Assembly: GCA_049322495.1 (NCBI GenBank)
Contig: JBMORD010000219.1
Coordinates: forward strand, 1-64,000
DNA length: 64,000 bases
Direction of reading: 5' to 3'
Source: Myxococcota bacterium
GTDB lineage: Bacteria > Myxococcota > Myxococcia > Myxococcales > Myxococcaceae
The notes below the pieces were generated by a model. It saw only the letters and a list, made by a program, of their open reading frames with translations, searched no databases and was not told where the DNA came from. The first letter of the stretch is position 1. Every line of letters begins with the position of its first letter. Position numbers and translations under genes: made by a program. This document shows positions 14,920-59,925 of this stretch, in pieces.

Positions 14920-14971
14920 AGCACCGGATGGGCCCGCACATCTGGAGACGCGCGCGAGCGCGTGACGCGGC

Positions 14972-15346: not shown

Positions 15347-15351
15347 GGCAG

Positions 15352-16038: not shown

Positions 16039-16060
16039 GGCGGTCCCCTACCACGACACG

Positions 16061-18313: not shown

Positions 18314-18320
18314 GGCTCGC

Positions 18321-38958: not shown

Positions 38959-39134
38959 CGCCTCTCCTCGCTTGTACTTCGGCTCGGCCTCGCTTGATCC
39001 TAACCATCATCTTCAACGGTCTGCACGAGTAGACATTTCGATAGCTGACCGTGTGCCCCTTCAGCCCACCTTCACGGGGCGGGTGCGGTTTTGGTTCTTG
39101 GTCCGACGGGGGGTTGGCCCCACAATCCGCCGAC

Positions 39135-39842
39135 GTGCAACTGAATCACGCGCAGCGCGAGCTCACCGTCAAGATCGTCTATTACGGCCCCGGTCTGTCG
39201 GGGAAGACGACCAACCTCCAGATGATCCATCAGCGGACGAGCCCCGAGGTGCGCGGGCGGCTGCTGACGGTCGAGACCCACGACGATCGCACGCTGTTCT
39301 TCGATCTGCTCCCGGTCTTCTTCAGCACCGCCAACGGCTTCAAGGTGAAGGTGAAGCTCTTCACCGTGCCCGGCCAGGTGATCCACAACGCGACGCGCCG
39401 CATCGTGCTGCAGGGGGCCGACGCGGTGGCCTTCATCGCCGACAGCCGCCGCTCGGCGGGGCCGGAGAACAACGCGTACTGGAAGAACCTCGTCGAGAAC
39501 ATGAAGGAGAACAACCTCGACCCGGCGCAGGTTCCGATCGTCATCCAGTACAACAAGCGCGATCTGCCCGACACCAAGACCGACGCGGAGATCGAAGAGA
39601 CGCGCAAGAAGGGCCGCGAGCCGGTGGTGGGGGCGATCGCCATTCGCGGGGTGGGCGTGCTCGAGACGCTCTACACGGTGCTCCAGTCCGCGTACCGCAG
39701 CCTCGAGGCGCGCGCGCACCTCTCGAAGACCATCGGGCTCACCGAGAAGGAGTTCCTCACCCAGGTCTTCGCCAACATCGAGGTCACCGGCACGGAGCTG
39801 GAGAAGGTGCTCCCGCCGCGCGCTCCGGGGGCTCGCCAGTGA
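39135..39842 (+). CDS. MglA-family Ras-like GTPase (a paralogue with a ~45-aa C-terminal extension)
   Basis: From the GTG start at 39135, 'QLNHAQRELTVKIVYYGPGLSGKTTNLQ' carries the P-loop, 'DDRTLFFDLLP' is switch I, 'LFTVPGQV' is the MglA-type G3 motif, and 'IQYNKRDL' is G4. Together these match Myxococcus MglA closely. An alternative upstream GTG at 39051 cannot be excluded. Confidence 0.85.
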   Translation: MQLNHAQRELTVKIVYYGPGLSGKTTNLQMIHQRTSPEVRGRLLTVETHDDRTLFFDLLPVFFSTANGFKVKVKLFTVPGQVIHNATRRIVLQGADAVAFIADSRRSAGPENNAYWKNLVENMKENNLDPAQVPIVIQYNKRDLPDTKTDAEIEETRKKGREPVVGAIAIRGVGVLETLYTVLQSAYRSLEARAHLSKTIGLTEKEFLTQVFANIEVTGTELEKVLPPRAPGARQ

Positions 39843-41314
39843 GACAGGGCGAGTCGGTCCTCCAGCGACGCGTCTCGCTCGGCGAGATGCTCGACACGGA
39901 GTCCTTCACCGAGGTGGTGAAGGGCTTCGTCGAGCTCTACCGGGTCGGCATCAAGGTCTTCGACGACAAGGGCGGCAAGCTCGCCGACATCAAGATCGGC
40001 AACGGCGACTTCTGCGGCTACGTCTTCAGCTTCCCCGAGGGGCGCCGGCGCTGCACCGCCACCGTCGGCCGCGTGAAGGACGGCCCGCTCGCGTGCTCGC
40101 ACGGCGCGCGGCTGCCGGTGCTCGAGCCGGATCTCCAGCCCCAGGCGAAGGGCCTGCTCACCGTGCCGTGCTTCACCGGGCTGCGGTACCTCGTGGTGCC
40201 GGTGCTGTGGGAAGGCGACACCCTCGGCCGCGTGGTGTTCGGCCCGTTCTACCCGGAGGACCTCAAGGACTTCCCGCCGAAGTCGCTCACCGAGATCTCC
40301 GACGCGTTCAACGTGGCCAACGCGCGCCCGTTCCTCGACAAGGTGCGCCGCGCGCCCGAGAGCACCATCGCGCGGGTGATGCTGCACTTCGGGCAGCTGC
40401 TGCAGACGATGATCTTCGGCGGTCAGAAGATGTTCCTGACCTCCCAGCTCCACATCGAGGCGACGCTCGAGTCGAACCGCGAGCTCGAGGAGCGGAACAA
40501 GAAGCTCGAGGAGGCCAACACCCGCCTCAAGGAGCTCGACCGCCTCAAGAGCGCCTTCCTCGCCACCGTCAGCCACGAGCTGCGCACGCCGCTGACCAGC
40601 ATCATCGGCTACTCCGAGATGCTCGCCGAGGGCCTCGCCGGCCCGCTCAACGGCGAGCAGATCGACTACGTGCGCACCATCATGGAGAAGGGCGAGACGC
40701 TGCTGAAGCTGATCAGCAGCATCCTCGACATCTCGCAGATCGAAGCGGGCAAGGTGCGCCTCAACTTCGAGCCGATGGACGCGCTGGAGCTGATCAACGG
40801 CTCGCTCACCTCGCTCAAGCCGCAGATGCAGAAGAAGGGCGTGGCGCTCGAGGCGAAGCTGCCGGGCAAGATGCCGCCGGTGACCGGAGATCGCGATCGG
40901 CTCCGGCAGGTGATCGTCAACCTGCTCACCAACGCGGTGAAGTTCACGCCCAGGGGCGGCCGGGTGGCGGTGACGCTCACCGAGGTGCAGCACCAGCCCG
41001 ACCTCAACGCGCCCGGCTACCGGATCATCGTCGAGGACTCGGGCGTGGGCATCCCGGCTGATCAGTTCGACAAGATCTTCAACAGCTTCTACCAGGTCGA
41101 CTCGTCGTCGACGCGCGAGTACGGCGGCGCGGGCCTCGGGCTGGCCATCGTGAAGAGCTTCGTCGAGGGCCACGGCGGCGTGGTGCGCGTGGCGTCGGAG
41201 CTCGGCCACGGCAGCCGCTTCACGCTGGTGCTCCCGGTGACGCCGGGCGCGCAGCAGCAGGTGCTCATCACGCCGCCCGTGACCTCGGTGGGGCCGGCCG
41301 ACGATCGGTTCTGA
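39839..41314 (+). CDS. Sensor histidine kinase with an N-terminal PocR-like sensory domain
   Basis: A GTG start overlaps the stop of the MglA-like gene (GTGA). PocR-like region: 'CGYVFSFPEGRRRCTATVG...LTVPCFTGLRYLVVPVLWEGDTLGRVVFGPF'. H-box: 'LATVSHELRTPLTSIIGYSEML'. N-box: 'QVIVNLLTNAVKFT'. G-boxes: 'DSGVGIP' and 'GGAGLGLAIVK'. Confidence 0.85.
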   Translation: MRQGESVLQRRVSLGEMLDTESFTEVVKGFVELYRVGIKVFDDKGGKLADIKIGNGDFCGYVFSFPEGRRRCTATVGRVKDGPLACSHGARLPVLEPDLQPQAKGLLTVPCFTGLRYLVVPVLWEGDTLGRVVFGPFYPEDLKDFPPKSLTEISDAFNVANARPFLDKVRRAPESTIARVMLHFGQLLQTMIFGGQKMFLTSQLHIEATLESNRELEERNKKLEEANTRLKELDRLKSAFLATVSHELRTPLTSIIGYSEMLAEGLAGPLNGEQIDYVRTIMEKGETLLKLISSILDISQIEAGKVRLNFEPMDALELINGSLTSLKPQMQKKGVALEAKLPGKMPPVTGDRDRLRQVIVNLLTNAVKFTPRGGRVAVTLTEVQHQPDLNAPGYRIIVEDSGVGIPADQFDKIFNSFYQVDSSSTREYGGAGLGLAIVKSFVEGHGGVVRVASELGHGSRFTLVLPVTPGAQQQVLITPPVTSVGPADDRF

Positions 41315-46763: not shown

Positions 46764-47914
46764 ACCCGGCGGCTCCGGAGCTGGCGATCGAGAAGCTCAA
46801 GGCGCAGCGCCCCGACGGCGCGGCGGTCGACGCCTTCATGCGCTCGCATCACGCGTTCCCGCTCGTCGAAGGCACGCGGGTGACGTTCGTCTTCCGCGGA
46901 CCGGTCGACGCGGTGAACCTCAAGAGCTGGGTGTATGGTTTGCCGAACTCGCAGCCGCTGCTGCAGGTGGCCGGCACCGACCTCTGGTACCTCACGCTCG
47001 ACATCCCGCGGAAGTCGCGCGTCGAATACAAGTTCGAGCTCGTCCGCAACGGGCAGGGCGTGTGGATCGAGGATCCGCTCAACAAGAACCGGGCGACGGA
47101 TCCGTTCGGCGCGAACTCGGTGGTCCACGGCGAGGGCTACTCGGTGCCCGAGTGGACGCAGTACGACCCCGACGCGCGCCCCGGCGTGCTCGAGCCGTGG
47201 GTGATCAACAGCGCGGCGTTCAACGACACGCGGAAGTTCCACGTGTACCTGCCGGCGCGCTTCCGGCGCACGCGGCGCTACCCGCTGATCTTCGTGCACG
47301 ACGGGCCTGACTACGTGCGCTTCGCGAACCTCAAGGTGGTGCTGGACAACCTGATCCACCGCCTGGAGATCCCCGACGTCATCGTGGCGCTGTCGGGCTC
47401 GCCCAACCGCATCGGCGAGTACGCGAACGACGAGCGGCACGCGCGCTTCGTGACCGAGGAGGTGGTGCCAGACCTCGAGCAGCGGCTGCCGATCATCAGC
47501 GCGCCGCGCGGGCGGTGCCTCATGGGGGCGTCATTCGGAGGGGTGGCGGCGCTCTCGACGGCGGCGCGGTACCCGGGCTTCTACGGACGGCTGCTGCTGC
47601 AGTCGGGCTCGTTCGCGTTCAGCGACTTCGGGCACCAGAACGAGCGCGGCCCCGCGTGGGACCCGGTGGTGCGGTTCATGAACCGCTTCCGCGAGAACCC
47701 GGTGCACATCGCAGACAAGGTGTTCATGAGCTGCGGCATGCACGAGCGGTTGATCTACGAGAACCGCTCGCTGGTGCCGATGCTGCAGTCGACCGACATC
47801 GACCTGCGGTACGTCGAGGCGCGCGACGGGCACAACTGGGAGAACTGGCGCGACCGCCTGCGCGAGGGGCTGGCCTGGCTGTTCCCCGGCCCGCTGCGCA
47901 TGGTCTACGAGTGA
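46760..47914 (+). CDS. Enterochelin-esterase-like alpha/beta hydrolase (N-terminal Ig-like domain + esterase domain)
   Basis: The ATG overlaps the upstream stop. The esterase domain has 'YPLIFVHDGPDY' and 'RCLMGASFGGVAAL'. Confidence 0.7.
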   Translation: MNPAAPELAIEKLKAQRPDGAAVDAFMRSHHAFPLVEGTRVTFVFRGPVDAVNLKSWVYGLPNSQPLLQVAGTDLWYLTLDIPRKSRVEYKFELVRNGQGVWIEDPLNKNRATDPFGANSVVHGEGYSVPEWTQYDPDARPGVLEPWVINSAAFNDTRKFHVYLPARFRRTRRYPLIFVHDGPDYVRFANLKVVLDNLIHRLEIPDVIVALSGSPNRIGEYANDERHARFVTEEVVPDLEQRLPIISAPRGRCLMGASFGGVAALSTAARYPGFYGRLLLQSGSFAFSDFGHQNERGPAWDPVVRFMNRFRENPVHIADKVFMSCGMHERLIYENRSLVPMLQSTDIDLRYVEARDGHNWENWRDRLREGLAWLFPGPLRMVYE

Positions 47915-48342
47915 GTCAAATATGGCGACGTAAACTCCTCGATGAGTAGCTCTTCGGGGAATGGGGGCACTTCAACTTCAGTGCCGACATAGAGAGTCAT
48001 GTCGTATCCAAAATGCAGAAATGTTGCCGGTCGGCCTTCGAGCTTGCACCAATATCTCTCGCGGAGACAGTCGATTGTAACTTGCCTCAGTTCCTGCTCG
48101 GTTGTGACGAGGCCCGTTCGTAGCCATACTTGATACACGATGTCGTGGTTTTCGATCTTTCTCACAGCCAACGGGAGAGTTCGCACGAGACAACTGGCTG
48201 CAAAACTGACCATCTTCGTCTCGAACCGAAGATACTCGCTCTCCGATAGTATGACTCCTGCGAACACGCGTCCGACATCGGAAATGCTGGACCAGTCATC
48301 AGAAAAGCTGGCCCCTGGTCTTCTGCGAATTCGCAAGCGCAC
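47905..48342 (-). CDS. Probable cognate immunity protein of the downstream-encoded RHS toxin tip (low-GC)
   Basis: It lies immediately 3' of the RHS toxin gene on the same strand, and it falls in the same ~50% GC block as the toxin C-terminal domain. It shows no family resemblance. The true start may be the internal 'MVSFAASCLVRTL' near 48213. Confidence 0.45.
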   Translation of the reverse strand: MRLRIRRRPGASFSDDWSSISDVGRVFAGVILSESEYLRFETKMVSFAASCLVRTLPLAVRKIENHDIVYQVWLRTGLVTTEQELRQVTIDCLRERYWCKLEGRPATFLHFGYDMTLYVGTEVEVPPFPEELLIEEFTSPYLTHS

Positions 48343-51300
48343 TAGTCTCCGATCCTTTCAAGTGCTTCATTGAATGTTCCGAGTCTTGTCTGTTTGGACT
48401 TTAGTCCTTCAACAGTGTTGGCCATCTTGAATGCTCCACCATTGTGTGAGTCGACGTCGAATGAAATGTAGCGCTTTCCGTCTGTATAAACTGCTTGTCC
48501 GTGAGACTCGAAGTTCGTCTTTCGAAAGCCGAGTTTTGTAGCCAAATTCTTGAGGAACTCCTTTCGCGGTAGTGGTGGCGGGGGTGTCGGTGGTTTGAAT
48601 AGGTTTGATTGTGATTGTTTTGATGCCGAGACGAGATCGTCAATCGCTAGGCTATGACATCCGTTGTTGTGGACGATTGACGAGTTCTGTCCGACTGCGT
48701 AGTTGTGATGCTCTGCTATCTCAAGGTTGAAGACGGGAACGCTCCCGACTCTGGCGTTGACCGAGAGGACGCGCGAACGGCCGACGACACCACCCAACTC
48801 GACCAAGGGCTGCAGGGACCGGGCTTCGGCGAATTCACCCGAGGTGAGCAAAAAGGGATGCTCGGGAGTCGCCGTGATGGTCTCGCGCGAGCCGTCGGCT
48901 CCTTCGATGGTCACGTCGACGAGCTCCGAAGCGAGCAAGCTCCACGCATTGAGGACCGGTTGTGCCGACGCGACGCCGCGTTCGTCGACGGCGATGACGA
49001 GGTCGCCCGGCTGAATCTGTTCGATAGGCCGGTGCTCGCCCGACGCGAGCAGGACGAGAGTTCCGGCGACGAAACAGCCCTTACCTGTGATCTTGCACGC
49101 ACCCTCAGCGCAGGCGGACTTCAGGCTGTCAACGCCCTTCTTGATAGCGCCGCCGACCTTGGTCGCGACCGAGCCACCGATCTTCTTCAGCGTTGGCGCA
49201 GCTGCCTTGAGCAGTCCCGCCCCTCCCTTGACGACGCCCGCAGTCACGGTGCCCATCACGAAGTCGCCGGCCATGCTGTTGACGTCGAAGGCTTCGCTGA
49301 GACTCCCGGTCTTCACGCCGCGCTCGACGATTCCGCCTGCCATGCCGGAGACACCTCCGGTGACCAGGAGGCTCGCCCCGCCGGTCGCCGCAGCGAGGCC
49401 TCCCGCGACCGCGCCGCCGGCAGCGGCGGCGAGGGTGCCCTGGACCGTGGCCGTCTCGCCGTTCCACGCCGCCTTGGCGAGGTAGACAGCCGCACCGATT
49501 CCTCCACCGATCAGCGCGCCGATGACGATGTGACCGAACTGCCCCGACTTGTCTCTGAGGCTCGTCGGCGTGTTTCGCGAGTAGCTGTACAGATTGAGAA
49601 CTTGCGGGTCGTCCTGCGCCTCATCGGCGCCCGCGAGCAGGCTGAGGTCGGGCGAGATGAATCGCCCCAGGCGAACGTCGTAGTACCGGCTGTTCAGGTA
49701 CTGGAGCCCCGCCTCTGCATCGAACTCCGCGCCGATGAAGCCATACGGCTCGTCGCTCTGAACGATCGGGTTTCCCCACACGTCGAAGTTCGACTGCGCG
49801 AGCACCTCTCCCGCGTCGTTGAGCTGGATGTTGTGACTGCCGAGGTGGTTGTCGAGGTAATAGACGGCGCGCGACTGCGGCCCGCAGGAACACGAGCTCA
49901 GGAGCACGGCCAGCCCCACCGCCAGCGTCCGCACTGCGAGCTTGCGCTTCTGGAGCAGCAGCGCTGCCATCGCGAGCAGCATCGCGGCAGCAGCAGCCAG
50001 TGATGACGCGGCGCCCCCGAGCGAGGCCATCGCGGTCACCGTCTTCGGGAGCGCGCCACCGACTCGCGCGATGCGCGCCTCTCCGAGGTAGACGTACTTG
50101 ACCAACGCGCCGTCTCGAACCTCTGAGTACTTGTCCAGATACAGGGTCTGGTGGCTCGTCCCACCCCTCGTCACTCGCTTGAGTGTGCGCTGTCCTGTGT
50201 AGTCATACAGATACTCGGTCGTGGCTTCTTCGGTCTCGACCTTGCGAAGCTCGCCCCTCGGGTCCCAGGTGAAGGTCCGCCCGAGCGACACGGTCATCTG
50301 CCCGTTCGCGTTCGTCACCATCGGGCGCCCACCCACCGCGGTCAGCACGCTGGGTCGCGTCAGGTCTTCGTACGCGTACGCGCCAACGTCGCTCTTCTGC
50401 AGCAGGTTCCCCACGTCGTCGTACTGGTGACTGAGCACGCCGGCTGGTCCCCGGGCGTCCTTCAGGCGCATCAAGCTGTCGTAGGTGAACTCGAACGACG
50501 AGCTGAGCTGACCGGCCGTGTTGACCCGGTCGGTGATTCGCTCGAGCGACCCGACCGGGCTGTAGGCGAACTCGAGGTTCTGGAGCTCCTTGCCGGCCCT
50601 GCTGGCGCTCCGAATGTCTTTCACGCGGTCGTGATCGTCGTACCCGGCGGTGCTGACTACGCCGTTGGCGAGCGCCCGACGCACGGCGAGGCCCTTCGCG
50701 TTGTACTCCACGGCTTCGACGAAACCTTCGATCGCCGAGACCAGCCCGCGCTTGTTGAACGAGTACTTGATGACGCTTTCGTCGGGGTAGGTGATCTCGG
50801 TCGCGTGGTCGAGGTTGTCGAACTTCAGCGAGAGCGTGTAGGTCTTTCCCTCGAAGGTGCGCGCGTTGCTGACGAGTCGACGGCGCGCGTCGTAGGTGAA
50901 CGACTCCTCGCCAGCGAGGTCGACCACACGGCTCAGGTCGCCGACCGAGGTCTCGTCATAGAAGTAGCGGATGGTGCCCGTGTCGACTCCAGCCGCGTCG
51001 ACGAGTGACTCGGTGATGATCCGTCCCGCTCCGTCGTAGCTCCGCACCGTCGCCTGCCCCAGCGCGTCGCGCGCGACCGTACCGTTGCCGTCATCGTCGT
51101 ACTCCCAGGTTCGAGTTCCAGCCTCGGGGTGCTTCACCCTGGTCAGACGTGACAGGCCGTCAAACACGTACTCGACGCGTTGTTGGTTTGCGAGAACGAC
51201 GCCCGCTCGTCGACCTGCGGCGTCGAAGAGGAACTCGGTGGTCAGCGGTTTGTCTTTGAGCAGCTCGACCGTCTTGACGAGCCGCCCCAGGCCATCGAAC

Positions 51301-54300
51301 TCGTGGCGCATCGGTGTGTTGGCGTGTTCGGCGCCAGGCGTGAGATCGAGCGCGTCCCAGTTCTCGACCCAGAGCGGTCCACGACGCATCTCAGCGCGAG
51401 TCCCATCCTCGAAGGTGCTGCTCACCACCCGGCCGAGCGCGTCGTAGCGGTGCTTGACCGCCGGCGTTCCAGGCGCCGTGAGCTCGAGCGACGACGCGAA
51501 GTAGCTGTCCCACTCCTCGAGCACGCTTCCGCGCCGCGAGTATCGCTTTCGGCCCTCGACGACGACCTGATCATTCTCGATGAGGTGCTGGGTTGCGACC
51601 TTCCGCCCGAGCCCGTCGAAGAGGTCCTGGGTCTCGGTGTCCTCGCCGTCTCGCACCCGCGTCAGCATTCGCAGCCTGGAGTACGGGTTTGCGAGTTCGT
51701 ACACCCACGAGACCGTCGGCTGGTCGAGCGAATCTCCCGCCTGGGCGATCGCCGTCAATCGATGCAGGGCGTCCCACCGGTACTGACTCACGCTCGAGTT
51801 GGAGTCGGTGAACGACGCCACGAGGCCCATCGCGTTCTTGTAGGTCGCCTTGAACTCGAGCTTGCGGCTGTCGTCGATCCACAGCCGCTCGAGCACAGGG
51901 AAGGTGTGCGTCGGGTCCCACTCGATCTCCCTGCGGGCGCCGCGCGGAGTGCGCATCTCGATCGGGTTGCCGAACTCGTCTCGCTCGATCCGGCTCTGCT
52001 GGACCCAGCGCGTGCCTTCGACCCACGCCTCGGTGCGCGTCTCGGCTCCTCGCGTGAGCTCTCCGAGGGGGAGTCCCTGAAACGCGTCGCCGTCGTAGTA
52101 ATGCCGTGTGATGGTCAGCGGAGCGCCATCGGCGCCGAGCGACTTCTGCTCTACCGGTCGCCCGAGGATCCACTCGTCGAGCTTGTTGGCCCAGGTCGCG
52201 AGCTGCACGGACTCGTCGCCGGTGCGATCGGTCCTGCCCAGTTGATGGTCCTCGACCACGTTTCCGAAGGCGTCGTAGACGAAGGTCCGCTGGGTCTCGA
52301 CCGGCGACGATCGGCCTTCGAAGATCAACGTCGTCTCGGAGGTGAGTTCAGCTCCGGTCACGTTGACGCCGCCCGTGCCGAGCTCGTAGACGCGAGGAGT
52401 CCACGTCCGGGTGATTCGGCTGAAGCGGAAGCCGCCCGTGGCCCTCGCCTCGACGCTGAGTTCCCGACCGCGGAGCGTCTCCGACAAGACCTCGAAGACG
52501 TGCTCGGTCTCGAGCGATGGCTCGTCATCGTCGCCTTCGTCGGTCTGCACGACCACCCCGAAGCCGCGGAACTCGCGCGTCGCGCGCTCGTAGTGCCCTT
52601 CTCTGTAGCGGTACTGCGTGACGTAGTCGGCGCCGAGCGAGTCACTGAGTACCACGCCAGCGACGACCTGAACCGGGAACGGCACGCGGCGCTGCCACGG
52701 CGTGCCGGCCTCCTGGGCGAGCTGGAACTCCTCGCTGCTCGATGTGTACGCGAGCCGTCTGGTCATCCCCAGCCCGTTGGCGACGCGCGTGAGCAGGTTG
52801 GCGCGCATGCCGGGCTGCAGGTCGACGTACACCACGCGCTCGTCGGGGACCGCGGACGGCGTGAAGTAGACGACGTCGAGGCTCCCGTTGGCGTTCATGT
52901 CCGCCAGGCGGACCTGGGTGAGTCCGGCGTTGGCGAAGGGGGTGTTGGCGACGCTCTGCTTCGCTTCGAAGCGCTCCCCTGCACCGAGCTTCCAGAAGTC
53001 GACGTGTTCCGTGTCGACGAGCACGAGATCAGGCAGGCCGTCTCCCGTGAGGTCCGCGAATTGAAGGCGCGACTCGAGCGCGCCGACGTCCGGAACGTCG
53101 CTGAGCTCGACCGGCGCATCGAAGCGGCCACGTCCCATCCCCGGCCAGTACATGAGCGAAGCGCTGCGAACGAAGGCGATGTCGACGAGTCGGTCGCCGT
53201 TGACGTCGACCAGCTTGAAGCGCGGGTCGGCGAAGTCGACCGTGGTTTGACCGCTCAGCAGCGGCAGGGTCACGGCCGGCTCGAAGTCACCCGCACCGTT
53301 ATTTCGCCACCAGCTCACGCCGTTGGGGGCCACCCTCAGGACGTCCGGGAGCTTGTCGAAGTCGAGGTCCACCAGCCGCGTCGCGCCGTCCTCGAGGTTG
53401 AACGAGGGCATCGAGGTGAACGTCTCCGCCGGCCGCCAGTCGCCGTCGCCGCTCGCCGCGAAATACCTGAAGGCCGTCGTTCCCGTGTGCGCGAGGAGGT
53501 CCGCAAGACCATCACCGTTCATGTCGCCCAGCTCGACCCCTGTGGTCTGGAGCGCGACGTTGGGCGCAGCGGCAACGGGCCGTGGCGCCGCGAAGCGCAG
53601 GCCGCCGATGTTCCTCGCCCACTGATGCTGTCCCGTCGCCGCGACGAGCACATCGACGAACCCGTCGCCGTCGAAGTCGGTGAGCTCGGCGTCGAGGTTG
53701 CTCCCGGGGAGTTGCACTGGCCCGTTGGACATCGCCGACGGGTGAGCGCCGTTGCTCATGCCCGAGTACTCGAAGGTCAGCGGAGGGAAGGTCGTCCGGT
53801 CGTCGTCTCCGAACATGACGACCGAGTCGAGGAGCGACAGCCCCGTTCCCATCACGTACGTGAACTCGTAGCGCGCGAGCTGGGACGTGCCGCCGAAGAC
53901 CCGGATCCGCTTCAGGCGCCGCGCCGCCACGGTCTTGAAGCCGGGCTTGTAGTCCGTGAGGACGTCAGGGCGCTGCTCCCACTCGAGCTCGACGTGGTTC
54001 TGGGCTGCGCCCGCTCGACGGTTGTATTCGATGCGGGTGAGGGAGGGCCGGCCACCGTGCTTCTCGTAGAAATAGCTGATCCGGTTCTGAAACCGGTCGA
54101 CCTCTTCTTCGAGCATCAATTGGAAGACCCGGCCGGCGTCTTCGATGCGGCTCTCCGGTGAGAGGCCGAAGCGCTGCGTGTTCCCGGACGGAAGGTCGAC
54201 CTCGAAGTGAGCGCCCGACTGTCGGACCCGGACGAAGCGCCCCTCGTTCTTCAGGCGCCAGGTGCCGTTGGGCAGCTTGACCAGCTCCGCGCCCGAGAGG

Positions 54301-54641
54301 AGCCAGGTGTCCTGGCCCGAATACCGGGGGAGGCCCTTCTCGGTCTGGAGCTGCATCGAAGCGACGGGGAGGCTCCACCCAATCCCCAGCTCTCCGTTGC
54401 CCGAGCCCGAGTCGTAGGTGATGGCGAGCTGCGGCGTCATCCCAGCCGTGCCCGGCGGGAGCTTGATGGGGATCGACTCGGTCGCGCTACCGCTGTTGAG
54501 CACGACCTGGAATGACTCGCCGAGCCCCGAGACGCTGCCCGGGCCCTTCGGGACATTGATGAGCTGAGGGCGGGTTCCGGACTTGTCTGCGAGACAGACG
54601 AACGACAGAAGGCACACGAGTGCCAGGAGCATCGGGCGCAT
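48342..54641 (-). CDS. RHS-repeat polymorphic toxin (TcB/TcC-like): signal peptide, SpvB domain, FG-GAP/VCBS beta-propeller, RHS repeats with core, Gly-zipper segment, Hint domain and a C-terminal toxin domain
   Basis: The start is 'MRPMLLALVCLLSFVCLA' with an AGGGAG Shine-Dalgarno sequence 7 nt upstream. The SpvB-type N-terminus reads 'SIPIKLPPGTAGMTPQLAITYDSGSGNGELGIGWSL'. FG-GAP-like motifs include 'DFDGDGFVDVL', 'DMNGDGLADLL' and 'DLTGDGLPDLVLV'. Many YD repeats are present, for example 'YRYDALGRLT', 'YDALGRVV', 'FDGLGRLV' and 'YTYDARRRLV'. The RHS core end is 'NLYSYSRNTPTSLRDKSGQFG'. A Gly/Ala-rich hydrophobic stretch follows. The Hint domain runs 'CFVAGTLVLLASGEHRPIEQIQPGDLVIA...SIVHNNGC'. 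The final ~105 aa are low-GC. Confidence 0.9.
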   Translation of the reverse strand: MRPMLLALVCLLSFVCLADKSGTRPQLINVPKGPGSVSGLGESFQVVLNSGSATESIPIKLPPGTAGMTPQLAITYDSGSGNGELGIGWSLPVASMQLQTEKGLPRYSGQDTWLLSGAELVKLPNGTWRLKNEGRFVRVRQSGAHFEVDLPSGNTQRFGLSPESRIEDAGRVFQLMLEEEVDRFQNRISYFYEKHGGRPSLTRIEYNRRAGAAQNHVELEWEQRPDVLTDYKPGFKTVAARRLKRIRVFGGTSQLARYEFTYVMGTGLSLLDSVVMFGDDDRTTFPPLTFEYSGMSNGAHPSAMSNGPVQLPGSNLDAELTDFDGDGFVDVLVAATGQHQWARNIGGLRFAAPRPVAAAPNVALQTTGVELGDMNGDGLADLLAHTGTTAFRYFAASGDGDWRPAETFTSMPSFNLEDGATRLVDLDFDKLPDVLRVAPNGVSWWRNNGAGDFEPAVTLPLLSGQTTVDFADPRFKLVDVNGDRLVDIAFVRSASLMYWPGMGRGRFDAPVELSDVPDVGALESRLQFADLTGDGLPDLVLVDTEHVDFWKLGAGERFEAKQSVANTPFANAGLTQVRLADMNANGSLDVVYFTPSAVPDERVVYVDLQPGMRANLLTRVANGLGMTRRLAYTSSSEEFQLAQEAGTPWQRRVPFPVQVVAGVVLSDSLGADYVTQYRYREGHYERATREFRGFGVVVQTDEGDDDEPSLETEHVFEVLSETLRGRELSVEARATGGFRFSRITRTWTPRVYELGTGGVNVTGAELTSETTLIFEGRSSPVETQRTFVYDAFGNVVEDHQLGRTDRTGDESVQLATWANKLDEWILGRPVEQKSLGADGAPLTITRHYYDGDAFQGLPLGELTRGAETRTEAWVEGTRWVQQSRIERDEFGNPIEMRTPRGARREIEWDPTHTFPVLERLWIDDSRKLEFKATYKNAMGLVASFTDSNSSVSQYRWDALHRLTAIAQAGDSLDQPTVSWVYELANPYSRLRMLTRVRDGEDTETQDLFDGLGRKVATQHLIENDQVVVEGRKRYSRRGSVLEEWDSYFASSLELTAPGTPAVKHRYDALGRVVSSTFEDGTRAEMRRGPLWVENWDALDLTPGAEHANTPMRHEFDGLGRLVKTVELLKDKPLTTEFLFDAAGRRAGVVLANQQRVEYVFDGLSRLTRVKHPEAGTRTWEYDDDGNGTVARDALGQATVRSYDGAGRIITESLVDAAGVDTGTIRYFYDETSVGDLSRVVDLAGEESFTYDARRRLVSNARTFEGKTYTLSLKFDNLDHATEITYPDESVIKYSFNKRGLVSAIEGFVEAVEYNAKGLAVRRALANGVVSTAGYDDHDRVKDIRSASRAGKELQNLEFAYSPVGSLERITDRVNTAGQLSSSFEFTYDSLMRLKDARGPAGVLSHQYDDVGNLLQKSDVGAYAYEDLTRPSVLTAVGGRPMVTNANGQMTVSLGRTFTWDPRGELRKVETEEATTEYLYDYTGQRTLKRVTRGGTSHQTLYLDKYSEVRDGALVKYVYLGEARIARVGGALPKTVTAMASLGGAASSLAAAAAMLLAMAALLLQKRKLAVRTLAVGLAVLLSSCSCGPQSRAVYYLDNHLGSHNIQLNDAGEVLAQSNFDVWGNPIVQSDEPYGFIGAEFDAEAGLQYLNSRYYDVRLGRFISPDLSLLAGADEAQDDPQVLNLYSYSRNTPTSLRDKSGQFGHIVIGALIGGGIGAAVYLAKAAWNGETATVQGTLAAAAGGAVAGGLAAATGGASLLVTGGVSGMAGGIVERGVKTGSLSEAFDVNSMAGDFVMGTVTAGVVKGGAGLLKAAAPTLKKIGGSVATKVGGAIKKGVDSLKSACAEGACKITGKGCFVAGTLVLLASGEHRPIEQIQPGDLVIAVDERGVASAQPVLNAWSLLASELVDVTIEGADGSRETITATPEHPFLLTSGEFAEARSLQPLVELGGVVGRSRVLSVNARVGSVPVFNLEIAEHHNYAVGQNSSIVHNNGCHSLAIDDLVSASKQSQSNLFKPPTPPPPLPRKEFLKNLATKLGFRKTNFESHGQAVYTDGKRYISFDVDSHNGGAFKMANTVEGLKSKQTRLGTFNEALERIGD

Positions 54642-54652
54642 GGTCGGCTCCC

Positions 54653-57600
54653 TCACTGAACCGTGTAGGCGTCGTGCGTGAGCTGAATCTCGATGTCATC
54701 CAGACCAGCGAGGTTCAGGTTCGCGTTGGCGGGGCTCGCTGGAGTCTGGTCGATGATGAGCTGCCACGGGCTGGCGAGCACTGCGCGCTCCTGCAACTCG
54801 ATGTTCTCGACCAGGGCGGTGAAGCCGGGGGCGTTGATCCCCGCCTGCACGATGGCAAGGCTGGGCTGGTTTGCCTTGCCGCTCACGTCATATGCGATGA
54901 TTGGCGCGACGCCGGACATGTCACGCACCCGAGCCCGCAGGTAGCTCGTGCCTCCATGGATGAGCTGCACCTGCGCAGATGTCACGCCAGCGCCGAGGTT
55001 GTCTCCGACGAGGTTGACTCGGATGGAGCGGATGCGGTCGGACGCGAGCAGCGACGAGAAGATGGGGTTCTCGGTGTTGTGCGTCGAGAACTGGATGTGG
55101 AAGTTGCCATTGGAGTCCCGGTTCTCTGGTGCCATCACGAAGCGGCGGAAGCGTTCGCGCGCGCTGATGATCTCGCCCGTCGCGACGTCTTTGATTGGCG
55201 CGGTGAAGCCGAGGATCTTCTCGCGGAGCGAGATGACGTCGACGCGCGTCTGCGGGCTGCCTGCCATTCCGGCAATGGTGCCCAGGGTGCCGTTCAGATA
55301 ACTGGAAAGTTCGACCGGCGAGCGAGCCGCCCACATCGGCGACTGGTCGATCGTCATGTTGAGCTGGTACTCGAGCGCGCGGGTGGCGAGGAACGCCCAC
55401 TGGAGCGCATTCCTTCCATCTCGCGCGGCGATCTGCCCGAGGTGGTTGGCGTAAATTCGATAGTGAATCGCCTGGAGACCCTGATTGCGGGTCAGCGATT
55501 CGGCGCGCGCCTTCGCTTCGAGAAGTTGATCCGCCTTTTCGTAGAGGGCGTTGAGTCGGCCCGCGGCCTGCGCGAGCCCATTGAGGGCGATGGACTGCTC
55601 GAGCTGCAGGGAGTCGAGCTGGAGGAGCTTCGCCTTGACCGTTGCAGCCGAGTTGATCAGTTCCGTCTGCGCGTAGCTGAATTCAATCGTCGCGGACTGG
55701 TTGATCTGCAGGGCGGCCTTCCCCTGCTCTGCGAGCAGCTTGATCTCGTCATTGATGCGACTGATGACGGCGTGTGCGACCCCGATGACGACCTGAGCTG
55801 TGCTCGCCACGCCCCAGCTGCTTGATGCGCTTCCCGCGGCGGCCATGGCGGTGCTCGCCGCGATGTCAACGGTGTGCTGGAAGATGTTCACCCGGCCGAT
55901 GGCGTAGTCGAGCGCCATGACCGCTGCCCCGGTCGTGCGAATCAGCTTGGCGTTGTTTTCATGCACTCCGGCCACCGCTGCGGCGCGGCTCTGCTCGATT
56001 GTGATCTCTCGAACGACGTTCTGGGCGTTCAGCGCCACGGCCTCGACGCGCTTGTTGGCGGCGACGATCTCGAGCCGCGCCTGCGAGAGCTGGCTGGCGT
56101 TAGTGGAGCCGAAGTCCGAGCCACAGTCCTCCAGGTTTGTCGCGGTGGCGCCACAGATGTCGCGGAACTGCCCGAGGATGGTTGAGGCCTGGCCGTTGAG
56201 TTCCGCCTGCATTGCGGTGGTACTGGTCTCGAAGGCTCGCGTGTTGGCCTGTGCCAGGCTGTAGGACGTCGACCACTGCGTCGCACTGCTGTCCGCGGAG
56301 CTCTTGATTTGGATGTAATTGGTTGCGCCCATTCCGTCTTTGTTCCAGAAGAACGGCACGTACCCTTCAACGTAGCCAAGGGCATTCTTGCCGTCCTCGA
56401 CGTCCTTCAGATCGCCAGACAACGCACGCCACTCCGCCTGGAGCGCTGAGACCTCTGGCGCCCAGGTCGAGGGACTCTTGGCGATGGTGGGGCCAAGTGC
56501 GGCGACGGCAAGGTACGCAGTGGCGAGGCCCTCTTTGAGCTTCGCTCGTGCTTCCTGGTCGGCGCTTCGCTTGCGCATCACGAACGCCTGCTGGTCGATG
56601 GCAAACATCAAGGCGTTGATGTCGAGCAGTCCGCGGCGGAGTTGCTCGCCGGCGCCCACCGCAGCCGGACCAATGAACTCCTCGGTGGGAATTGGGGAGG
56701 TCGTCAGATCGGTTGCCGTCAGTCTGCTCAGGTAGGTGGCAATCGCGGGGTCGGCGAACGCGATTGGCGTGGTGGCCGTCGAATACAGCCCGGTCGCGAG
56801 CCGTGTCGCTCCGAGTCCGAACGTATTCTCCGTCGTCTGAAGCGAGGCGGAAGGGTCGACGAAGTCGTCGCTGGCGGCGGCGACGGCCGCGTTCCCCTCG
56901 TAGAGAGCGGCGTCAGAGGCGACCTTGAGCGTGTTCAGGAATCGCCCCGCGACGCTCGTATCGCCAGCGCGCAGCGCCTTGGCGTACCAATACTGCGCAC
57001 ATCGGAGGTAGAGGACGTCATAGGTTCTGCGGTTCGCACAGAACGTGACGTCAGGCCCCACCGGCGCGACGCAGCGGTCTGCCTGATAGGGGGTCGAGGA
57101 GGTCGGAAGGAATTCGTAGTAAAACTGCATGGACAGCTTCTTCCCGGAGGGGGCGAAGTTGAAGAAGGAGTCTCCGTTGGCCGAGGCGCTCGAGCCACAG
57201 GCTCCAGTCGGACAGGTCAGACAGGCCTGATAGGCGGCGCGTGGGTTGCCGGCGGCATCGACAAAGGGGTCTTCGATGGCAGGGGCCTCTGCGGAGTGTG
57301 GGATCGCCGCCAGGGTGCGCGCCGGCCCCATCCGCCGGAGGACTGCGGCGCCGCTGACAGTCGTTCCCGCGCCAAGGACGCCGCGAATGGTCTCGGTGTA
57401 CGTTCCTGAGAGGACACCCGGCGACGTCTGACGGACCTTGATCTCGACCGCTCGCGTCAGGTTGTTGGGGACGGCCGGGTTGGCGGCAGTGCCTCGCGCG
57501 GCATCCATCGAGAACTTGAGCGTCAACTCGCCGTCCGTCACTTGACCCGAGAGGGCTGCGTCGACGGGCCAGACCGGTGACGCATCGCCCACGACGGCGC

Positions 57601-58366
57601 CTTGAAGGGCGGTCGTTCCGCTGAACGTCAGCAGCGCGCTGTGTCGGCCGAGCTCGACCGGGCTGCTGATGTTGAAGACCCCAGCCCAGGTTCCCTCGAG
57701 CGGCTCGTTCAGCCGGAGCGCGATGCGCTTCGTTCCCGCGCTCGTGTTGACCGTCAGCGACGCGCTGGTCGTCGCACCGAGCGCCGCGCGATCGAGCACC
57801 ACGGTGAGCGTCACCGGCTGTCCCGAGACGCGGCCCTCGAAGGGCGTGACGGAGAATGCTTCGGATGAGGAGAGAACCCGGAAGTCGAAGGGCTCCCCGC
57901 CCGCATTCGAGAGCACGACCTGCTGGGAATTGGTCGCGTCATCGAAGGCGAGAAGCTCCACGCTCAGCTGCGGCACGCCCTTGCTCGGTGGCGTCGGCGC
58001 GGGTGGGGTGGTGACGGCCTCTTCCTCGAGACACCTGCCGCGGAGGCTGCAGACCGTGCCGTTCGAGCAGTCCTTGTCCGCGAGGCAGTCGTGCCGGCAC
58101 GAACCCAGCTTGCAGTAATCACCGCGCGGGCAGTCGGCGTCGAGGGCGCAGGCCGAGAAGCTCGTCGCGGTCGCTGGCGCCTGGCCGCAGCGGCCCTCAG
58201 TACAGACCTCGTTCTCGCGGCAGTCCGGCGTCACCGAGCACGCCGGGTTGCATGCGCGTCCCGGCAGGCAGACGCCTCCGTCGTTGCCTGCGCCGCCGTC
58301 GGGCACTTGCATCGTCGAGCCACAACCGACCAACCAGACCACTCCCAACAGCCACGTTGTTCGCAT
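54653..58366 (-). CDS. Large lipoprotein, possibly a TcA-like (Tc toxin A-component-like) partner of the RHS protein
   Basis: The start is 'MRTTWLLGVVWLVGCGS' with a lipobox. An N-terminal Cys-rich EGF-like module is followed by a ~700-aa alpha-helical core and a C-terminal beta-rich domain ('VNLVGDNLGAGVTSAQVQLIHGGTSYLRARVRD...'). Its stop is 11 nt from the RHS gene start on the same strand. The TcA assignment is a hypothesis. Confidence 0.5.
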   Translation of the reverse strand: MRTTWLLGVVWLVGCGSTMQVPDGGAGNDGGVCLPGRACNPACSVTPDCRENEVCTEGRCGQAPATATSFSACALDADCPRGDYCKLGSCRHDCLADKDCSNGTVCSLRGRCLEEEAVTTPPAPTPPSKGVPQLSVELLAFDDATNSQQVVLSNAGGEPFDFRVLSSSEAFSVTPFEGRVSGQPVTLTVVLDRAALGATTSASLTVNTSAGTKRIALRLNEPLEGTWAGVFNISSPVELGRHSALLTFSGTTALQGAVVGDASPVWPVDAALSGQVTDGELTLKFSMDAARGTAANPAVPNNLTRAVEIKVRQTSPGVLSGTYTETIRGVLGAGTTVSGAAVLRRMGPARTLAAIPHSAEAPAIEDPFVDAAGNPRAAYQACLTCPTGACGSSASANGDSFFNFAPSGKKLSMQFYYEFLPTSSTPYQADRCVAPVGPDVTFCANRRTYDVLYLRCAQYWYAKALRAGDTSVAGRFLNTLKVASDAALYEGNAAVAAASDDFVDPSASLQTTENTFGLGATRLATGLYSTATTPIAFADPAIATYLSRLTATDLTTSPIPTEEFIGPAAVGAGEQLRRGLLDINALMFAIDQQAFVMRKRSADQEARAKLKEGLATAYLAVAALGPTIAKSPSTWAPEVSALQAEWRALSGDLKDVEDGKNALGYVEGYVPFFWNKDGMGATNYIQIKSSADSSATQWSTSYSLAQANTRAFETSTTAMQAELNGQASTILGQFRDICGATATNLEDCGSDFGSTNASQLSQARLEIVAANKRVEAVALNAQNVVREITIEQSRAAAVAGVHENNAKLIRTTGAAVMALDYAIGRVNIFQHTVDIAASTAMAAAGSASSSWGVASTAQVVIGVAHAVISRINDEIKLLAEQGKAALQINQSATIEFSYAQTELINSAATVKAKLLQLDSLQLEQSIALNGLAQAAGRLNALYEKADQLLEAKARAESLTRNQGLQAIHYRIYANHLGQIAARDGRNALQWAFLATRALEYQLNMTIDQSPMWAARSPVELSSYLNGTLGTIAGMAGSPQTRVDVISLREKILGFTAPIKDVATGEIISARERFRRFVMAPENRDSNGNFHIQFSTHNTENPIFSSLLASDRIRSIRVNLVGDNLGAGVTSAQVQLIHGGTSYLRARVRDMSGVAPIIAYDVSGKANQPSLAIVQAGINAPGFTALVENIELQERAVLASPWQLIIDQTPASPANANLNLAGLDDIEIQLTHDAYTVQ

Positions 58367-58422: not shown

Positions 58423-59925
58423 ATGTTGCTGCGCGTCGGTTTGCTGGTGGTGGTCGTGCTGTCGTCATCATGCGGGACGACGTCGGGTGTTGATGGCGGG
58501 GGCGGTGGCGGTTCGGGTGGAAACTCGGGAACGGGCGGAGGTGGCGGCGGTGGTCCCGCGTTGGCCATCGTCACCGAGACTCTCGGCAGCGGGCGTATTG
58601 GCGTCGCGTATTCACAGCCGCTCTCCGCGTCCGGCGGTGTTGGCCCGTACGGTTGGGTGATCGTCTCAAAGTCGCCGTCGTTCACCTGGCTGACGATTGG
58701 ATCGAACACCGGCACGCTCAGCGGTCTGCCTGCGACGGCCGGCACAGGCTCCGTCGTCGTGGCGGTCACCGATCAGAACGCCGTCACGATCTCGAAGGAG
58801 TTCTCGCTGCAGATCGATGCGTGCCAGAGCGGAAGCACGGTTGCGTGCGCGGTCCCCATCGGCGGCGGGTGCTCGGTCGGAACGCAGACGTGCGTCAACG
58901 GCGAGCTCTCAGGCGCATGCTCGGGAGCCCTCTCGACGGACGTCAGCCGATGCGGCCCGTCGTGTGGGGCCTGCGATCCCGTGACGGCGGATCGCTGTGC
59001 GGCCGGCGTTTGTGCGTGCGGCGGCGGGGCTGCGTGCGGTGTCGGACAGGCCTGCTGCGGCGGTGTGTGCAAGAGCCTCGATGACCCACGAAGCTGCGGC
59101 GCGTGTGCGAATGATTGCACGTCGATGGCAGGTCAGAACGTCACCGCGTCCTGTTCATCACGTCAGTGTGCGTTCGCGTGCTCGGCTCCGAACTTCAATC
59201 ACTGCGTTGGCAATACTTCGGTGCCTCCGACGGCCGGCGTTGCTTGCGAGACCGACGTCGCCCTGTCAGTCGACAACTGCGGCAGCTGCGGACACGGTTG
59301 TGCGCCCTTGTCGAACTCGAACACGGTCGCTCCGGGTGGCGTGTCTTGCAGCAGTGGTCAGTGCCGCATCACGTGCGCGCTCCAGTTCTTGAACTGCAAT
59401 GGGGCAACCGAAGACGGGTGCGAGGTTCCGTTTTCTGTGATGAATTGTGGTTCTTGCGGCAACGTCTGCCAGGCCGGCGCGAATGCAACCACCACCTGCA
59501 CCTCGGGCGCGTGTGTCTTTTCGTGTGTGAGTCCTCGGATTCACTGCGGTTCGCCGCTCGGTAACAACGTTGCGTGTGAAACCGACCCGACCAACGACTG
59601 GAATAACTGTGGAGGTTGCGGACGGCGGTGTGCGTCGGACAAGGCCGACAATTGCACGGGTGGGCAGTGCCGCTGCGGCGCGAACGCAGCCTGTGGCGCG
59701 GGCCTGCGCTGCGTTGGCGGGGCGTGCATTTGTGACACCCAGAGCGGGTGCGCAGGCTGCTGCGTTGGAGGGACGACCTGCGCGGCGGGCACCTCCGGTA
59801 CTTCGTGTGGTGAGGGCGGCGTGACATGCGCCAGCTGCAGCTCGCTCGTCTGCGAGGTGGGCCCGCCGGTCGTCAGAGGCTTCTGCGACAGCTCCCTGAC
59901 TCCTCGGCAGTGCGGTTGTCTCTGA
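58423..59925 (+). CDS. Cys-rich lipoprotein with a putative Ig-like (He_PIG/cadherin-like) domain and myxobacterial Cys-rich repeats
   Basis: The start is 'MLLRVGLLVVVVLSSSCGTTSG', followed by a Gly-rich linker. 'LAIVTETLGSGRIGVAYSQPLSASGGVGPYGWV' is the Ig-like region. More than 60 Cys follow in repeating 'CxxCGxxC' / 'NCGxCG' units. Confidence 0.6.
   Translation: MLLRVGLLVVVVLSSSCGTTSGVDGGGGGGSGGNSGTGGGGGGGPALAIVTETLGSGRIGVAYSQPLSASGGVGPYGWVIVSKSPSFTWLTIGSNTGTLSGLPATAGTGSVVVAVTDQNAVTISKEFSLQIDACQSGSTVACAVPIGGGCSVGTQTCVNGELSGACSGALSTDVSRCGPSCGACDPVTADRCAAGVCACGGGAACGVGQACCGGVCKSLDDPRSCGACANDCTSMAGQNVTASCSSRQCAFACSAPNFNHCVGNTSVPPTAGVACETDVALSVDNCGSCGHGCAPLSNSNTVAPGGVSCSSGQCRITCALQFLNCNGATEDGCEVPFSVMNCGSCGNVCQAGANATTTCTSGACVFSCVSPRIHCGSPLGNNVACETDPTNDWNNCGGCGRRCASDKADNCTGGQCRCGANAACGAGLRCVGGACICDTQSGCAGCCVGGTTCAAGTSGTSCGEGGVTCASCSSLVCEVGPPVVRGFCDSSLTPRQCGCL

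Follow-up and report, generated by a model that had tools for sequence, protein, structure and literature searches.

The DNA analysed here (the window) is a stretch of 64,000 nucleotides from a Myxococcota bacterium (contig JBMORD010000219.1 of assembly GCA_049322495.1). On its minus strand it carries three co-directional genes encoding a lipoprotein of 1237 amino acids (aa), hereafter the A-like protein, a 2099-aa protein with fused TcB and TcC parts, hereafter the BC protein, and an overlapping open reading frame (ORF) of 145 aa. We propose, with a probability of roughly 60%, that this locus encodes a two-component translocation system of the ABC (toxin complex, Tc) type that serves antagonism between bacteria and is accompanied by an immunity gene. 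A translocation complex of A and BC is the best explanation of the data because the BC protein possesses a propeller gate and the A-like protein a predicted TcB-binding-like domain, the two sides of the interface at which Tc components dock, because the two genes lie 11 nt apart and because their adjacency recurs in other loci. Nuclease tips, immunity genes and the swapping of tips between loci point to bacteria as the targets.

The tight spacing of the three genes was recorded in the initial annotation of the window and is real, with coordinates, gap and overlap as described there. The A-like gene (54653..58366, minus strand) starts with the ATG at 58366 and ends with a TGA at 54655-54653. 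Its frame is readable from 58471; the ATG at 58366 was chosen, giving the N-terminus MRTTWLLGVVWLVGC with a signal peptide and a lipobox. The 11-nt spacer gggagccgacc separates its stop codon from the ATG (54641) of the BC gene (48342..54641, minus strand), which encodes a fused TcB/TcC-type RHS cocoon with a C-terminal polymorphic toxin. The TAG of the BC gene and the GTG with which the 145-aa ORF begins overlap (TAGTG, 48344-48340). This ORF (47905..48342, minus strand) belongs to an uncharacterised family and is the candidate immunity gene.

The A-like lipoprotein and its predicted fold

Two AlphaFold2 models of the A-like protein were used, model 1 comprising residues 121-1237 (predicted local distance difference test score, pLDDT, of 77) and model 2 comprising the C-terminal 638 aa, which was based on an alignment of 58 sequences (pLDDT 85). 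A Foldseek comparison with the Protein Data Bank (PDB) returned TcA subunits at all ranks from 1 to 21 (E 2e-12 to 6e-8), namely TcdA1, TcdA4, XptA1, XptA2, YenA2 and TcaA-TcaB. The alignments covered about 1300 columns; TM-scores against TcA were low because the arrangement of the domains differs. The structural similarity found in this way leaves the A-like call of the initial annotation unrefuted.

From the N-terminus to the C-terminus, model 1 begins with two beta domains, which are followed by a helical domain, a hairpin made of three very long helices and a C-terminal beta domain. The two beta domains (57317..57979, minus strand) are predicted to be an immunoglobulin-like (Ig) domain of the PapD/MSP/BACON type and an eight-stranded avidin-like barrel, and they may bind a receptor. 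The helical domain (56387..57244, minus strand; helices at 257-540 of model 1) is possibly the counterpart of a part of the alpha-helical shell of TcA. The very long helical hairpin (residues ~759-1002; 55361..56092, minus strand), the candidate channel element in both models, is formed by helices at 639-723 and 735-882 in model 1 and includes one helix of 101 residues in model 2. Its tip, IAASTAMAAAGSASSSWGVASTAQVVIGVAHAVIS (55754..55864, minus strand), contains a 35-residue uncharged stretch rich in Gly, Ala and Ser, constitutes the sole hydrophobic window of the mature A-like protein and is a candidate membrane-inserting loop. This stretch is poor in charges in most of 40 aligned relatives, so that its composition is kept while its sequence is not conserved, and it has a low pLDDT in both models. 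The C-terminal beta domain (54662..55252, minus strand) resembles the TcB-binding domain of TcdA1, on which it superposes.

Two features of TcA subunits, the C-terminal TcB-binding-like domain and the long helical hairpin with its hydrophobic tip, are consequently present in the models. The neuraminidase-like domain and the large enclosing shell were not found in them, as there is only the helical domain of about 280 residues and no beta-sandwich before the hairpin; Pfam gave no neuraminidase-like match on the A-like protein either.

At the level of sequence, the A-like protein starts with a lipoprotein signal peptide (58316..58366, minus strand), in which MRTTWLLGVVWLVG directly precedes the lipobox Cys. 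By a strict pattern, at least 59 of 90 full-length members of the family possess a lipobox. The signal peptide is followed by Cys-rich repeats (58022..58270, minus strand). The initial annotation had called this module EGF-like; the Cys-rich N-terminus is real, and its family is DUF7107 (PF23416, E 6e-6), which was matched in 24 of the 40 family members scanned. Beyond DUF7107, sequence models gave only a weak BACON-like Ig match, and the C-terminal 1000 aa matched nothing in Pfam, NCBIfam or the PDB sequences.

The TcA families (VRP1, TcA_TcB_BD, neuraminidase-like and TcA_RBD) were not detected on the A-like protein of the window with Pfam or NCBIfam, and they are absent from the 25 commonest Pfam families listed for 40 of its relatives. 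The Pfam check proposed in the initial annotation, which included TcA_TcB_BD, accordingly gave a negative answer for this protein. Searches of the PDB with phmmer and with profiles yielded no significant TcA match. The profile matches had E values of 4-7; those of the hairpin, which are below the threshold, fall on the channel region of XptA2 (2094-2274) and YenA2 (911-1080). The A-like protein was also compared by hhalign with TcA C-termini from plasmid records, first with one and then with four (Serratia SepA and the TcA proteins of Pantoea, Bacillus and Vibrio). The alignments with the four C-termini were not significant (E 0.2-0.3) and for this reason were not counted as evidence; they are collinear to the final residue (LDDIxLxIxH compared with LsDIvLHIRYT).

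A word-indexed search found 11 relatives of the A-like protein, the closest homologue being 72-76% identical. When 1.84 billion cluster representatives were searched exhaustively with a profile, 1637 relatives were obtained with E values of at most 1e-3, among them 209 with E values of at most 1e-30, and most of the relatives have a length of about 1200 aa. Judged by the models, the 1237-aa lipoprotein resembles TcA in the parts predicted to form the channel and to bind TcB; at the sequence level it is not a member of the TcA family. The TcA role suggested for it in the initial annotation is backed by its predicted structure (the Foldseek ranks, the hairpin and the TcB-binding-like domain) and not by its sequence.

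The BC cocoon, its toxin tip and the candidate immunity gene

The domains of the BC protein were located with Pfam and NCBIfam on an ORF of 2104 aa, which starts five codons upstream of the 2099-aa version, and their positions are counted on this longer ORF. All domains named here scored above the cut-offs: SpvB at 55-127, four FG-GAP repeats, TcdB_toxin_midN at 560-712, Rhs_assc_core at 1625-1706 and PT-HINT at 1875-1996. The SpvB N-terminal domain, the FG-GAP beta-propeller and TcdB_toxin_midN (Pfam E values of 1e-24, 6e-27 and 4e-33) occupy 52521..54494 of the minus strand. In Tc toxins this region forms the gate that docks on TcA. Residues 283-707 of the BC protein were aligned to residues 356-789 of TcdB2 in a PDB sequence search (E 3e-43), and the propeller region matched TcdB2-TccC3, YenB and TcdB1 with E values from 1e-35 to 1e-43. 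The RHS/YD-repeat shell follows at 50037..52499 (minus strand; Pfam RHS_repeat, E 1e-25; NCBIfam YD_repeat_2x). The Rhs-associated core, an aspartyl autoprotease (49539..49784, minus strand; TIGR03696, E 6e-16), contains the motif RFISPD ... RDKSGQ, in which both catalytic Asp residues are retained and the consensus DPxGL is altered to DKSGQ; cleavage is predicted after RDKSGQ. SpvB, FG-GAP and the TcdB mid/N region together with an RHS shell and a two-Asp Rhs core are the features of a TcB/TcC cocoon. Its sequence indicates that the 2099-aa protein is a fused cocoon of this type with an SpvB domain, a propeller gate, an RHS shell and an intact autoprotease motif. This confirms the TcB/TcC arrangement given in the initial annotation, all domains of which were present, with E values of 1e-40 to 1e-43 against TcdB2-TccC3 and YenB.

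RHS shells with C-terminal nucleases are common as type VI secretion system (T6SS) cargo, and Rhs shells of T6SS proteins in the PDB matched the BC protein with E values of 1e-13 to 1e-14. The BC protein might accordingly be regarded as an Rhs effector delivered by a T6SS. However, no PAAR, VgrG or prePAAR domain was found in it, its N-terminus consists of a cleavable Sec signal peptide and the SpvB/propeller region, and none of the window ORFs examined, which are of housekeeping or unrelated types, is a T6SS gene. This identity was rejected as very improbable.

The Sec-type signal peptide MRPMLLALVCLLSFVCLA (54585..54641, minus strand; hydropathy 2.27) is followed by DKSG. It is kept in all four myxobacterial BC proteins and is absent in the BC fusions of Streptomyces and Burkholderia; canonical TcB proteins likewise have no signal peptide. 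The sequence DKSG occurs twice in the BC protein, once behind the signal peptide (CLA followed by DKSGT) and once in the RDKSGQ motif of the Rhs core (49539-49560), which may be a coincidence. The copy behind the signal peptide is kept as A/G-DKSG in four of four BC homologues.

An insert (residues ~1538-1587; 49881..50030, minus strand) separates the last YD strand of the shell from the Rhs core; in it a basic loop (QKRKLAVR) splits two hydrophobic stretches. The second stretch ends with LLSSC, which is similar to a lipobox (L-x-[SG]-C); the corresponding site reads LLGGC, AFTSC and ALVSC in homologues. The insert is present in the BC proteins of the window and of three other loci (L001, L003 and L004) and absent in the BC fusions of Streptomyces and Burkholderia, in a Bacillus TcC and in SepC. 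Its sequence is suggestive of a membrane hairpin or lipoprotein signal inside the protein. A two-gene reading, in which an internal start at the insert would give rise to a separate lipoprotein, was discarded and BC was kept as one gene, because each of the four homologues has an uninterrupted reading frame.

The predicted cargo behind the cleavage site of the Rhs core has 398 aa, a mass of 40 kDa and an isoelectric point (pI) of 7.9, and it consists of a Gly-rich hydrophobic segment, PT-HINT and a toxin tip. The Gly/Ala-rich pre-toxin segment (residues ~1701-1850; 49083..49538, minus strand) was recognised by its hydropathy and is 44-50% identical in L001 and L003. Of the Gly-zipper described in the initial annotation, the hydrophobic, Gly-rich stretch is visible in the sequence; no Pfam model matched it. 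The PT-HINT autoproteolytic domain (48666..49076, minus strand) extends from Cys1856 to VHN1992. It belongs to PF07591 (E 1e-11 to 2e-12; 45-48 bits against a cut-off of 27.7) and matches the bacterial intein-like domain 2LWY of the PDB (E 1e-9). Its two ends, the Cys of GCFVAGT and VHN, are conserved in L001, L003 and L005. The Hint domain of the initial annotation is borne out by this score and by the presence of the N-terminal Cys and the C-terminal His-Asn.

The tip of about 105 aa had been described as being of unknown family, which is refuted by its match to Ntox21 (48345..48656, minus strand; PF15526, E 9e-22; 77.7 bits against a cut-off of 25). The characterised member of this family cleaves bacterial 16S rRNA. 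The tip was aligned to residues 178-235 of chain A of 4NTQ, a CdiA-CT from Enterobacter cloacae, with which it shares the motifs S-x-D-x-x-x-H, R-x-G-T and R-x-x-D. These appear in the tip as SFDVDSH, RLGT and RIGD; the motif residues of the Ntox21 family are K, [DS]xDxxxH, K, RxG[ST] and RxxD (PMC3482391). According to this comparison, the tip is an Ntox21 domain of the CdiA-CT 16S rRNase family with intact catalytic motifs. It has a pI of 9.5, a GC content of 0.47 and a GC content at third codon positions (GC3) of 0.46; in the upstream parts of the BC gene GC is 0.65-0.69 and GC3 is 0.83-0.89.

The 145-aa ORF has a low GC content in common with the tip (GC 0.52, GC3 0.58). Its product is acidic (pI 5.7) and lacks a hydrophobic segment that could be used as a signal peptide. 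No Pfam or NCBIfam family matched it even at an E value of 10, no PDB chain was found below an E value of 0.2, and by sequence it matches none of Imm41, Imm-Barstar and CdiI-ECL. A single homologue, 54% identical (P0158), was present among 5.8 billion proteins. It is encoded on a short contig (L005) directly behind a PT-HINT-Ntox21 C-terminus, and this C-terminus with its Gly-rich segment is 73% identical to that of the window. The foreign GC and GC3 values shared by the tip and the ORF follow the pattern of a swapped toxin/immunity cassette. This indicates that the cassette (47905-48656) was recently imported and joined just after the HINT domain. The immunity call of the initial annotation holds for a candidate identified by context, resting on the overlap with the toxin stop codon, the acidic product without a signal-peptide-like segment, the tip-like GC content and the homologue behind the same toxin. 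As a candidate cognate immunity gene, the ORF is well supported by this context.

Recurrence of the A-BC pair and the probable mode of action

Six loci contain an SpvB-RHS fusion with the A-like gene directly upstream; they are found in the window, a Myxococcota metagenome-assembled genome (MAG; L001), an Archangiaceae MAG (L002), two other assemblies (L003 and L004) and a metagenome contig (L016). The adjacency is maintained across these loci at 27-76% identity. Over residues 1-700 the BC protein shares 47-57% identity with its homologues. Its tip shares 20-25% with those of L001 and L003, and the tip of L004 is essentially unalignable. The three further loci with complete ends (L001, L003 and L004) possess different tips, and two of them possess different recognisable immunity genes directly downstream: in L001 an HNH tip is followed by DUF4265 and in L004 an Ntox50 tip is followed by MafI2. 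The tip of L003 has no family assignment, and no gene was called directly behind it. Members of the 145-aa ORF family follow the Ntox21 tips of the window and of L005. A conserved N-terminal region, a variable tip, an adjacent immunity-type gene and tip exchange, as found here, characterise the polymorphic toxins of the TcdB/TcaC class.

A scan of genome contigs with peptide patterns of the A-like family detected two loci only, and the same scan of metagenome contigs gave no match. A 1255-aa ORF in L001, considered as an A-like paralogue, turned out to be an antisense artefact of high-GC DNA.

Some members of the A-like family have no BC partner. Orphans were found in L015 and, as the first of two paralogues, in L016. 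In the latter locus (8001-19813) the orphan has 1270 aa and the second paralogue, which is directly followed by the SpvB-RHS fusion, has 1316 aa; a gene on the opposite strand (491 aa) separates the two. Behind each of the distant members in L006 and L008 (P0046 and P0064; ~23% identity) lies a gene whose product has a lipoprotein-like N-terminus and is not a BC protein; this product has a DUF1565 match in L008 and no Pfam match in L006. Since these downstream genes do not encode BC, other partners or cargoes for the TcA-like scaffold may exist. In L007 (2040-10115), a 2691-aa protein (P0142) bears the C-terminal module of the family, about 800 residues, behind FG-GAP, Big_5, DUF11/CLIPPER and PKD domains. 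The genes adjoining it encode an ABC ATPase, periplasmic adaptor proteins and a MacB-type permease, and it has no BC neighbour.

These members without BC (L015, the first paralogue of L016 and L006-L008) allow the BC protein to be seen as a self-sufficient, Sec-exported surface RHS toxin that is delivered by contact in the manner of WapA or of contact-dependent inhibition (CDI), the mode currently assumed for Rhs4/5 of Myxococcus xanthus, with the lipoprotein acting separately as a pore-former or an adhesin and not as a conduit for the cargo. The separate export signals of the two proteins and the lack of significant sequence similarity between the A-like protein and TcA fit this explanation, and CDI-like delivery has been proposed for myxobacterial Rhs proteins (review PMC10433427). 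Nevertheless, BC retains the SpvB/propeller/TcdB_midN region that docks on TcA in Tc toxins, the C-terminal domain of the A-like model superposes on a TcB-binding domain, and the genes are 11 nt apart in the window and stay adjacent in six loci of widely differing identity. Considering both sides, we judge independent action of the two proteins to be unlikely.

As regards the targets, all characterised Tc toxins hit eukaryotic cells (PMC7861908). Like them, the system of the window might be directed against amoebae, nematodes or insects; the small downstream gene would then only guard the producer from a leaky nuclease before export. For an injector crossing a single membrane, a eukaryotic plasma membrane is a more suitable target than a diderm envelope, and HNH DNases such as that of L001 would be lethal to any cell type. 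On the other hand, tip swapping and the GC break are the signature of a bacterial arms race, the rRNA cut by the characterised Ntox21 member is bacterial, and every complete locus but L003 has an adjacent immunity-type small gene (DUF4265, MafI2 or the window ORF). Canonical Tc loci have none: not one of the Tc loci examined by Song et al. contained an immunity gene, and Tc toxins are regarded as anti-eukaryotic (PMC7861908). Moreover, Ntox21, Ntox50/MafI2 and HNH are components of polymorphic toxin systems that act between bacteria (PMC3482391). A eukaryotic target is for these reasons considered quite improbable. Bacterial targets also fit the kin discrimination of Myxococcus xanthus, in which large Rhs proteins with signal peptides act independently of the T6SS and of outer membrane exchange by a route that is unknown (PMC10433427).

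The proposed two-component system could work as follows. Both A and BC would be exported by Sec, and A would receive a lipid anchor that holds it in the outer membrane or on the surface of the cell. There A would oligomerise, by analogy into a pentamer, and its C-terminal domain would dock the BC propeller. The Rhs core would cut after RDKSGQ and free the cargo within the shell. Upon contact with a target, the hairpin tips would enter the membrane and the unfolded cargo would pass through the channel, with the Gly-rich segment aiding membrane passage and PT-HINT releasing Ntox21. Cleavage of 16S rRNA by Ntox21 would then stop translation, and in the producer and its kin the cytoplasmic 145-aa protein would neutralise the RNase.

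Several points weigh against an ABC-type injector acting on bacteria. No sequence method (Pfam, NCBIfam, PDB profiles or hhalign) ties the A-like protein to TcA. Of the parts of TcA, the protein has neither the neuraminidase-like domain nor the receptor-binding domains, and most of the shell is missing as well; a trigger for the transition from prepore to pore is not inferable from it. Canonical Tc toxins cross a single eukaryotic membrane; in a diderm target there are two. With 40 kDa and a pI of 7.9, the predicted cargo is larger and less basic than the cargoes known to travel through TcA. The hydrophobic insert that is conserved in the shell could mean that BC is tethered to a membrane. Finally, the fold may work alone, because some A-like members have no BC partner.

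A further idea, which we consider possible and put forward tentatively, is that the compact lipoprotein A family may be an unrecognised minimal TcA injector for bacterial membranes, perhaps acting from the periplasm. Lipidated A, perhaps together with a lipidated C-terminal BC fragment generated at the internal lipobox-like site, would reach the outer membrane of a neighbour, for example by outer membrane exchange, and the hairpin would enter the inner membrane and inject the nuclease.

Outside the coordinates covered by the initial annotation, a gene for a 500-aa lipoprotein (58423..59925, plus strand; lipobox LSSSC) is divergent from the A-like gene. Its product contains a single He_PIG Ig domain (Pfam, E 1e-6) and a long Cys-rich region with many CxxC-type repeats. 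Homologues adjoin the A-like gene in L001 (51% identity), L003 (55%) and L004 (41%), and a gene with a He_PIG domain also precedes the A-like gene in L017. This lipoprotein may be a fourth component, either a receptor-binding or an assembly factor. A reading of L001:8281-9915 (plus strand) as the He_PIG gene was dismissed as a wrong-frame artefact, the true homologue being on the other strand.

The GC content is about 70% across the window and 61-68% in the stretch at ~48-60 kb. The flanking genes, which encode glycogen synthase, ATP-grasp enzymes and esterases, are of housekeeping types. Elsewhere in the window, a 1014-aa ORF (28524-31568, minus strand) contains the shoulder domain of the major vault protein (PF11978, E 5e-31). 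The P-loop region KIVYYGPGLSGKTTNLQ of the ORF at 39051-39842 (plus strand) presumably resembles the MglA family of small GTPases, a likeness noted by eye that would agree with the window coming from a Myxococcota bacterium, and in the overlapping long ORF at 38729-41314 (plus strand) the C-terminal part was likewise read by eye as being presumably histidine-kinase-like.

Comparison with known systems

Among the systems compared, small lipoprotein toxins and Rhs proteins are known from the Myxococcota themselves. SitA lipoproteins are delivered by outer membrane exchange, and Rhs4 and Rhs5 are toxins of kin discrimination (PMC5562445, PMC10433427). They share with the window locus their Myxococcota hosts, polymorphic nuclease tips with immunity genes, and lipoprotein or Sec signals. 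As far as can be compared by description, SitA proteins differ in being small lipoprotein toxins without an RHS shell, and Rhs4 and Rhs5 in having about 4000 aa and no reported A-type partner. The CdiA-CT/CdiI pair of E. cloacae (4NTQ) resembles the window pair in its tip, which aligns over residues 178-235 with the motifs given above and belongs to the same Pfam family, Ntox21. It differs in its carrier, a filament of the type V secretion system instead of an RHS cocoon, and the 145-aa product is unlike any PDB chain including CdiI.

The canonical Tc toxins, represented by TcdA1/TcdB2-TccC3 of Photorhabdus, YenTc of Yersinia and Sep of Serratia, have eukaryotic targets. In canonical loci (L010 and L012-L014) TcB and TcC are encoded by separate genes, and TcA has about 2400-2550 aa and is split over two genes in L013. 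Phage-type holin and lysozyme genes flank the canonical loci L010 and L012; the window locus has none and possesses Sec and lipoprotein signals instead.

The BC protein has exactly the architecture of the TcdB/TcaC class of polymorphic toxins, with which it has in common the signal peptide, the SpvB domain, the integrin-like propeller, the RHS and HINT domains, the variable tip and the immunity gene (PMC3482391). The delta-proteobacteria are among the hosts of this class (Zhang, Aravind et al. 2012, PMC3482391). The 2012 survey named no A-type partner, did not mention TcdA/TcaA and did not list Ntox21 with the TcdB/TcaC export class (PMC3482391). Another difference is the immunity gene, which in the window belongs to neither Imm41 nor Barstar, the families linked to Ntox21 earlier (PMC3482391).

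A two-gene architecture is also that of the Type 3 ABC toxins, in which a TcA without receptor-binding domains (RBDs) is combined with a fused TcBC and which have been proposed as the ancestral state (Low et al. 2025, PMC12705794). A Burkholderia plasmid locus (L011) is an example; its A gene is annotated as neuraminidase-like and encodes at least 3400 aa. As in Type 3, the A gene of the window adjoins a fused SpvB/propeller/RHS BC gene, the A protein is without RBD and CBD inserts, and a channel hairpin and a TcB-binding domain are predicted. The window locus matches this architecture, although its A protein is not alignable to TcA by sequence. With 1237 aa it has about half the length of Type 3 A proteins, which exceed 2300 aa; in addition, it is a lipoprotein, is not seen by sequence models of TcA and has no neuraminidase-like domain. 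The BC protein of the window differs from Type 3 in its Sec signal peptide, its hydrophobic insert and the Gly-rich segment and PT-HINT before the toxin, and the locus differs in its nuclease tips with adjacent immunity genes and in the order of A before BC.

No description of the compact A family was found in the literature on Tc/ABC toxins in myxobacteria or on antibacterial Tc toxins. The initial annotation had considered the whole combination undescribed. This does not hold for SpvB-propeller-RHS-HINT proteins with immunity genes, which were described in 2012 (PMC3482391), nor for TcA with a fused TcBC, described in 2025 (PMC12705794); it stands for a compact lipoprotein A paired with nuclease/immunity modules. 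The new element appears to be the compact TcA-like lipoprotein family itself, together with its conserved pairing with nuclease-tipped BC proteins and immunity genes in Myxococcota. In metagenomes this family amounts to about 1600 clusters at 50% identity, and it has been without any annotation. A conserved TcA-like neighbour offers a concrete, testable delivery mechanism for the SpvB/TcB-type RHS toxins, which have been catalogued since 2012 without a named partner. If the compact A family is indeed a minimal injector for bacterial membranes, the locus would encode the first antibacterial ABC toxin and provide the missing route for Rhs-dependent kin discrimination in myxobacteria. The biology of the Tc family would be broadened by a Tc-type machine that combines immunity genes with bacterial nuclease tips. 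The compact form also bears on the proposal that a two-component system of A and BC was the ancestral ABC toxin. A 1237-aa A protein without shell decorations would, moreover, be a smaller scaffold than the 2500-aa TcA that is now engineered for protein delivery.

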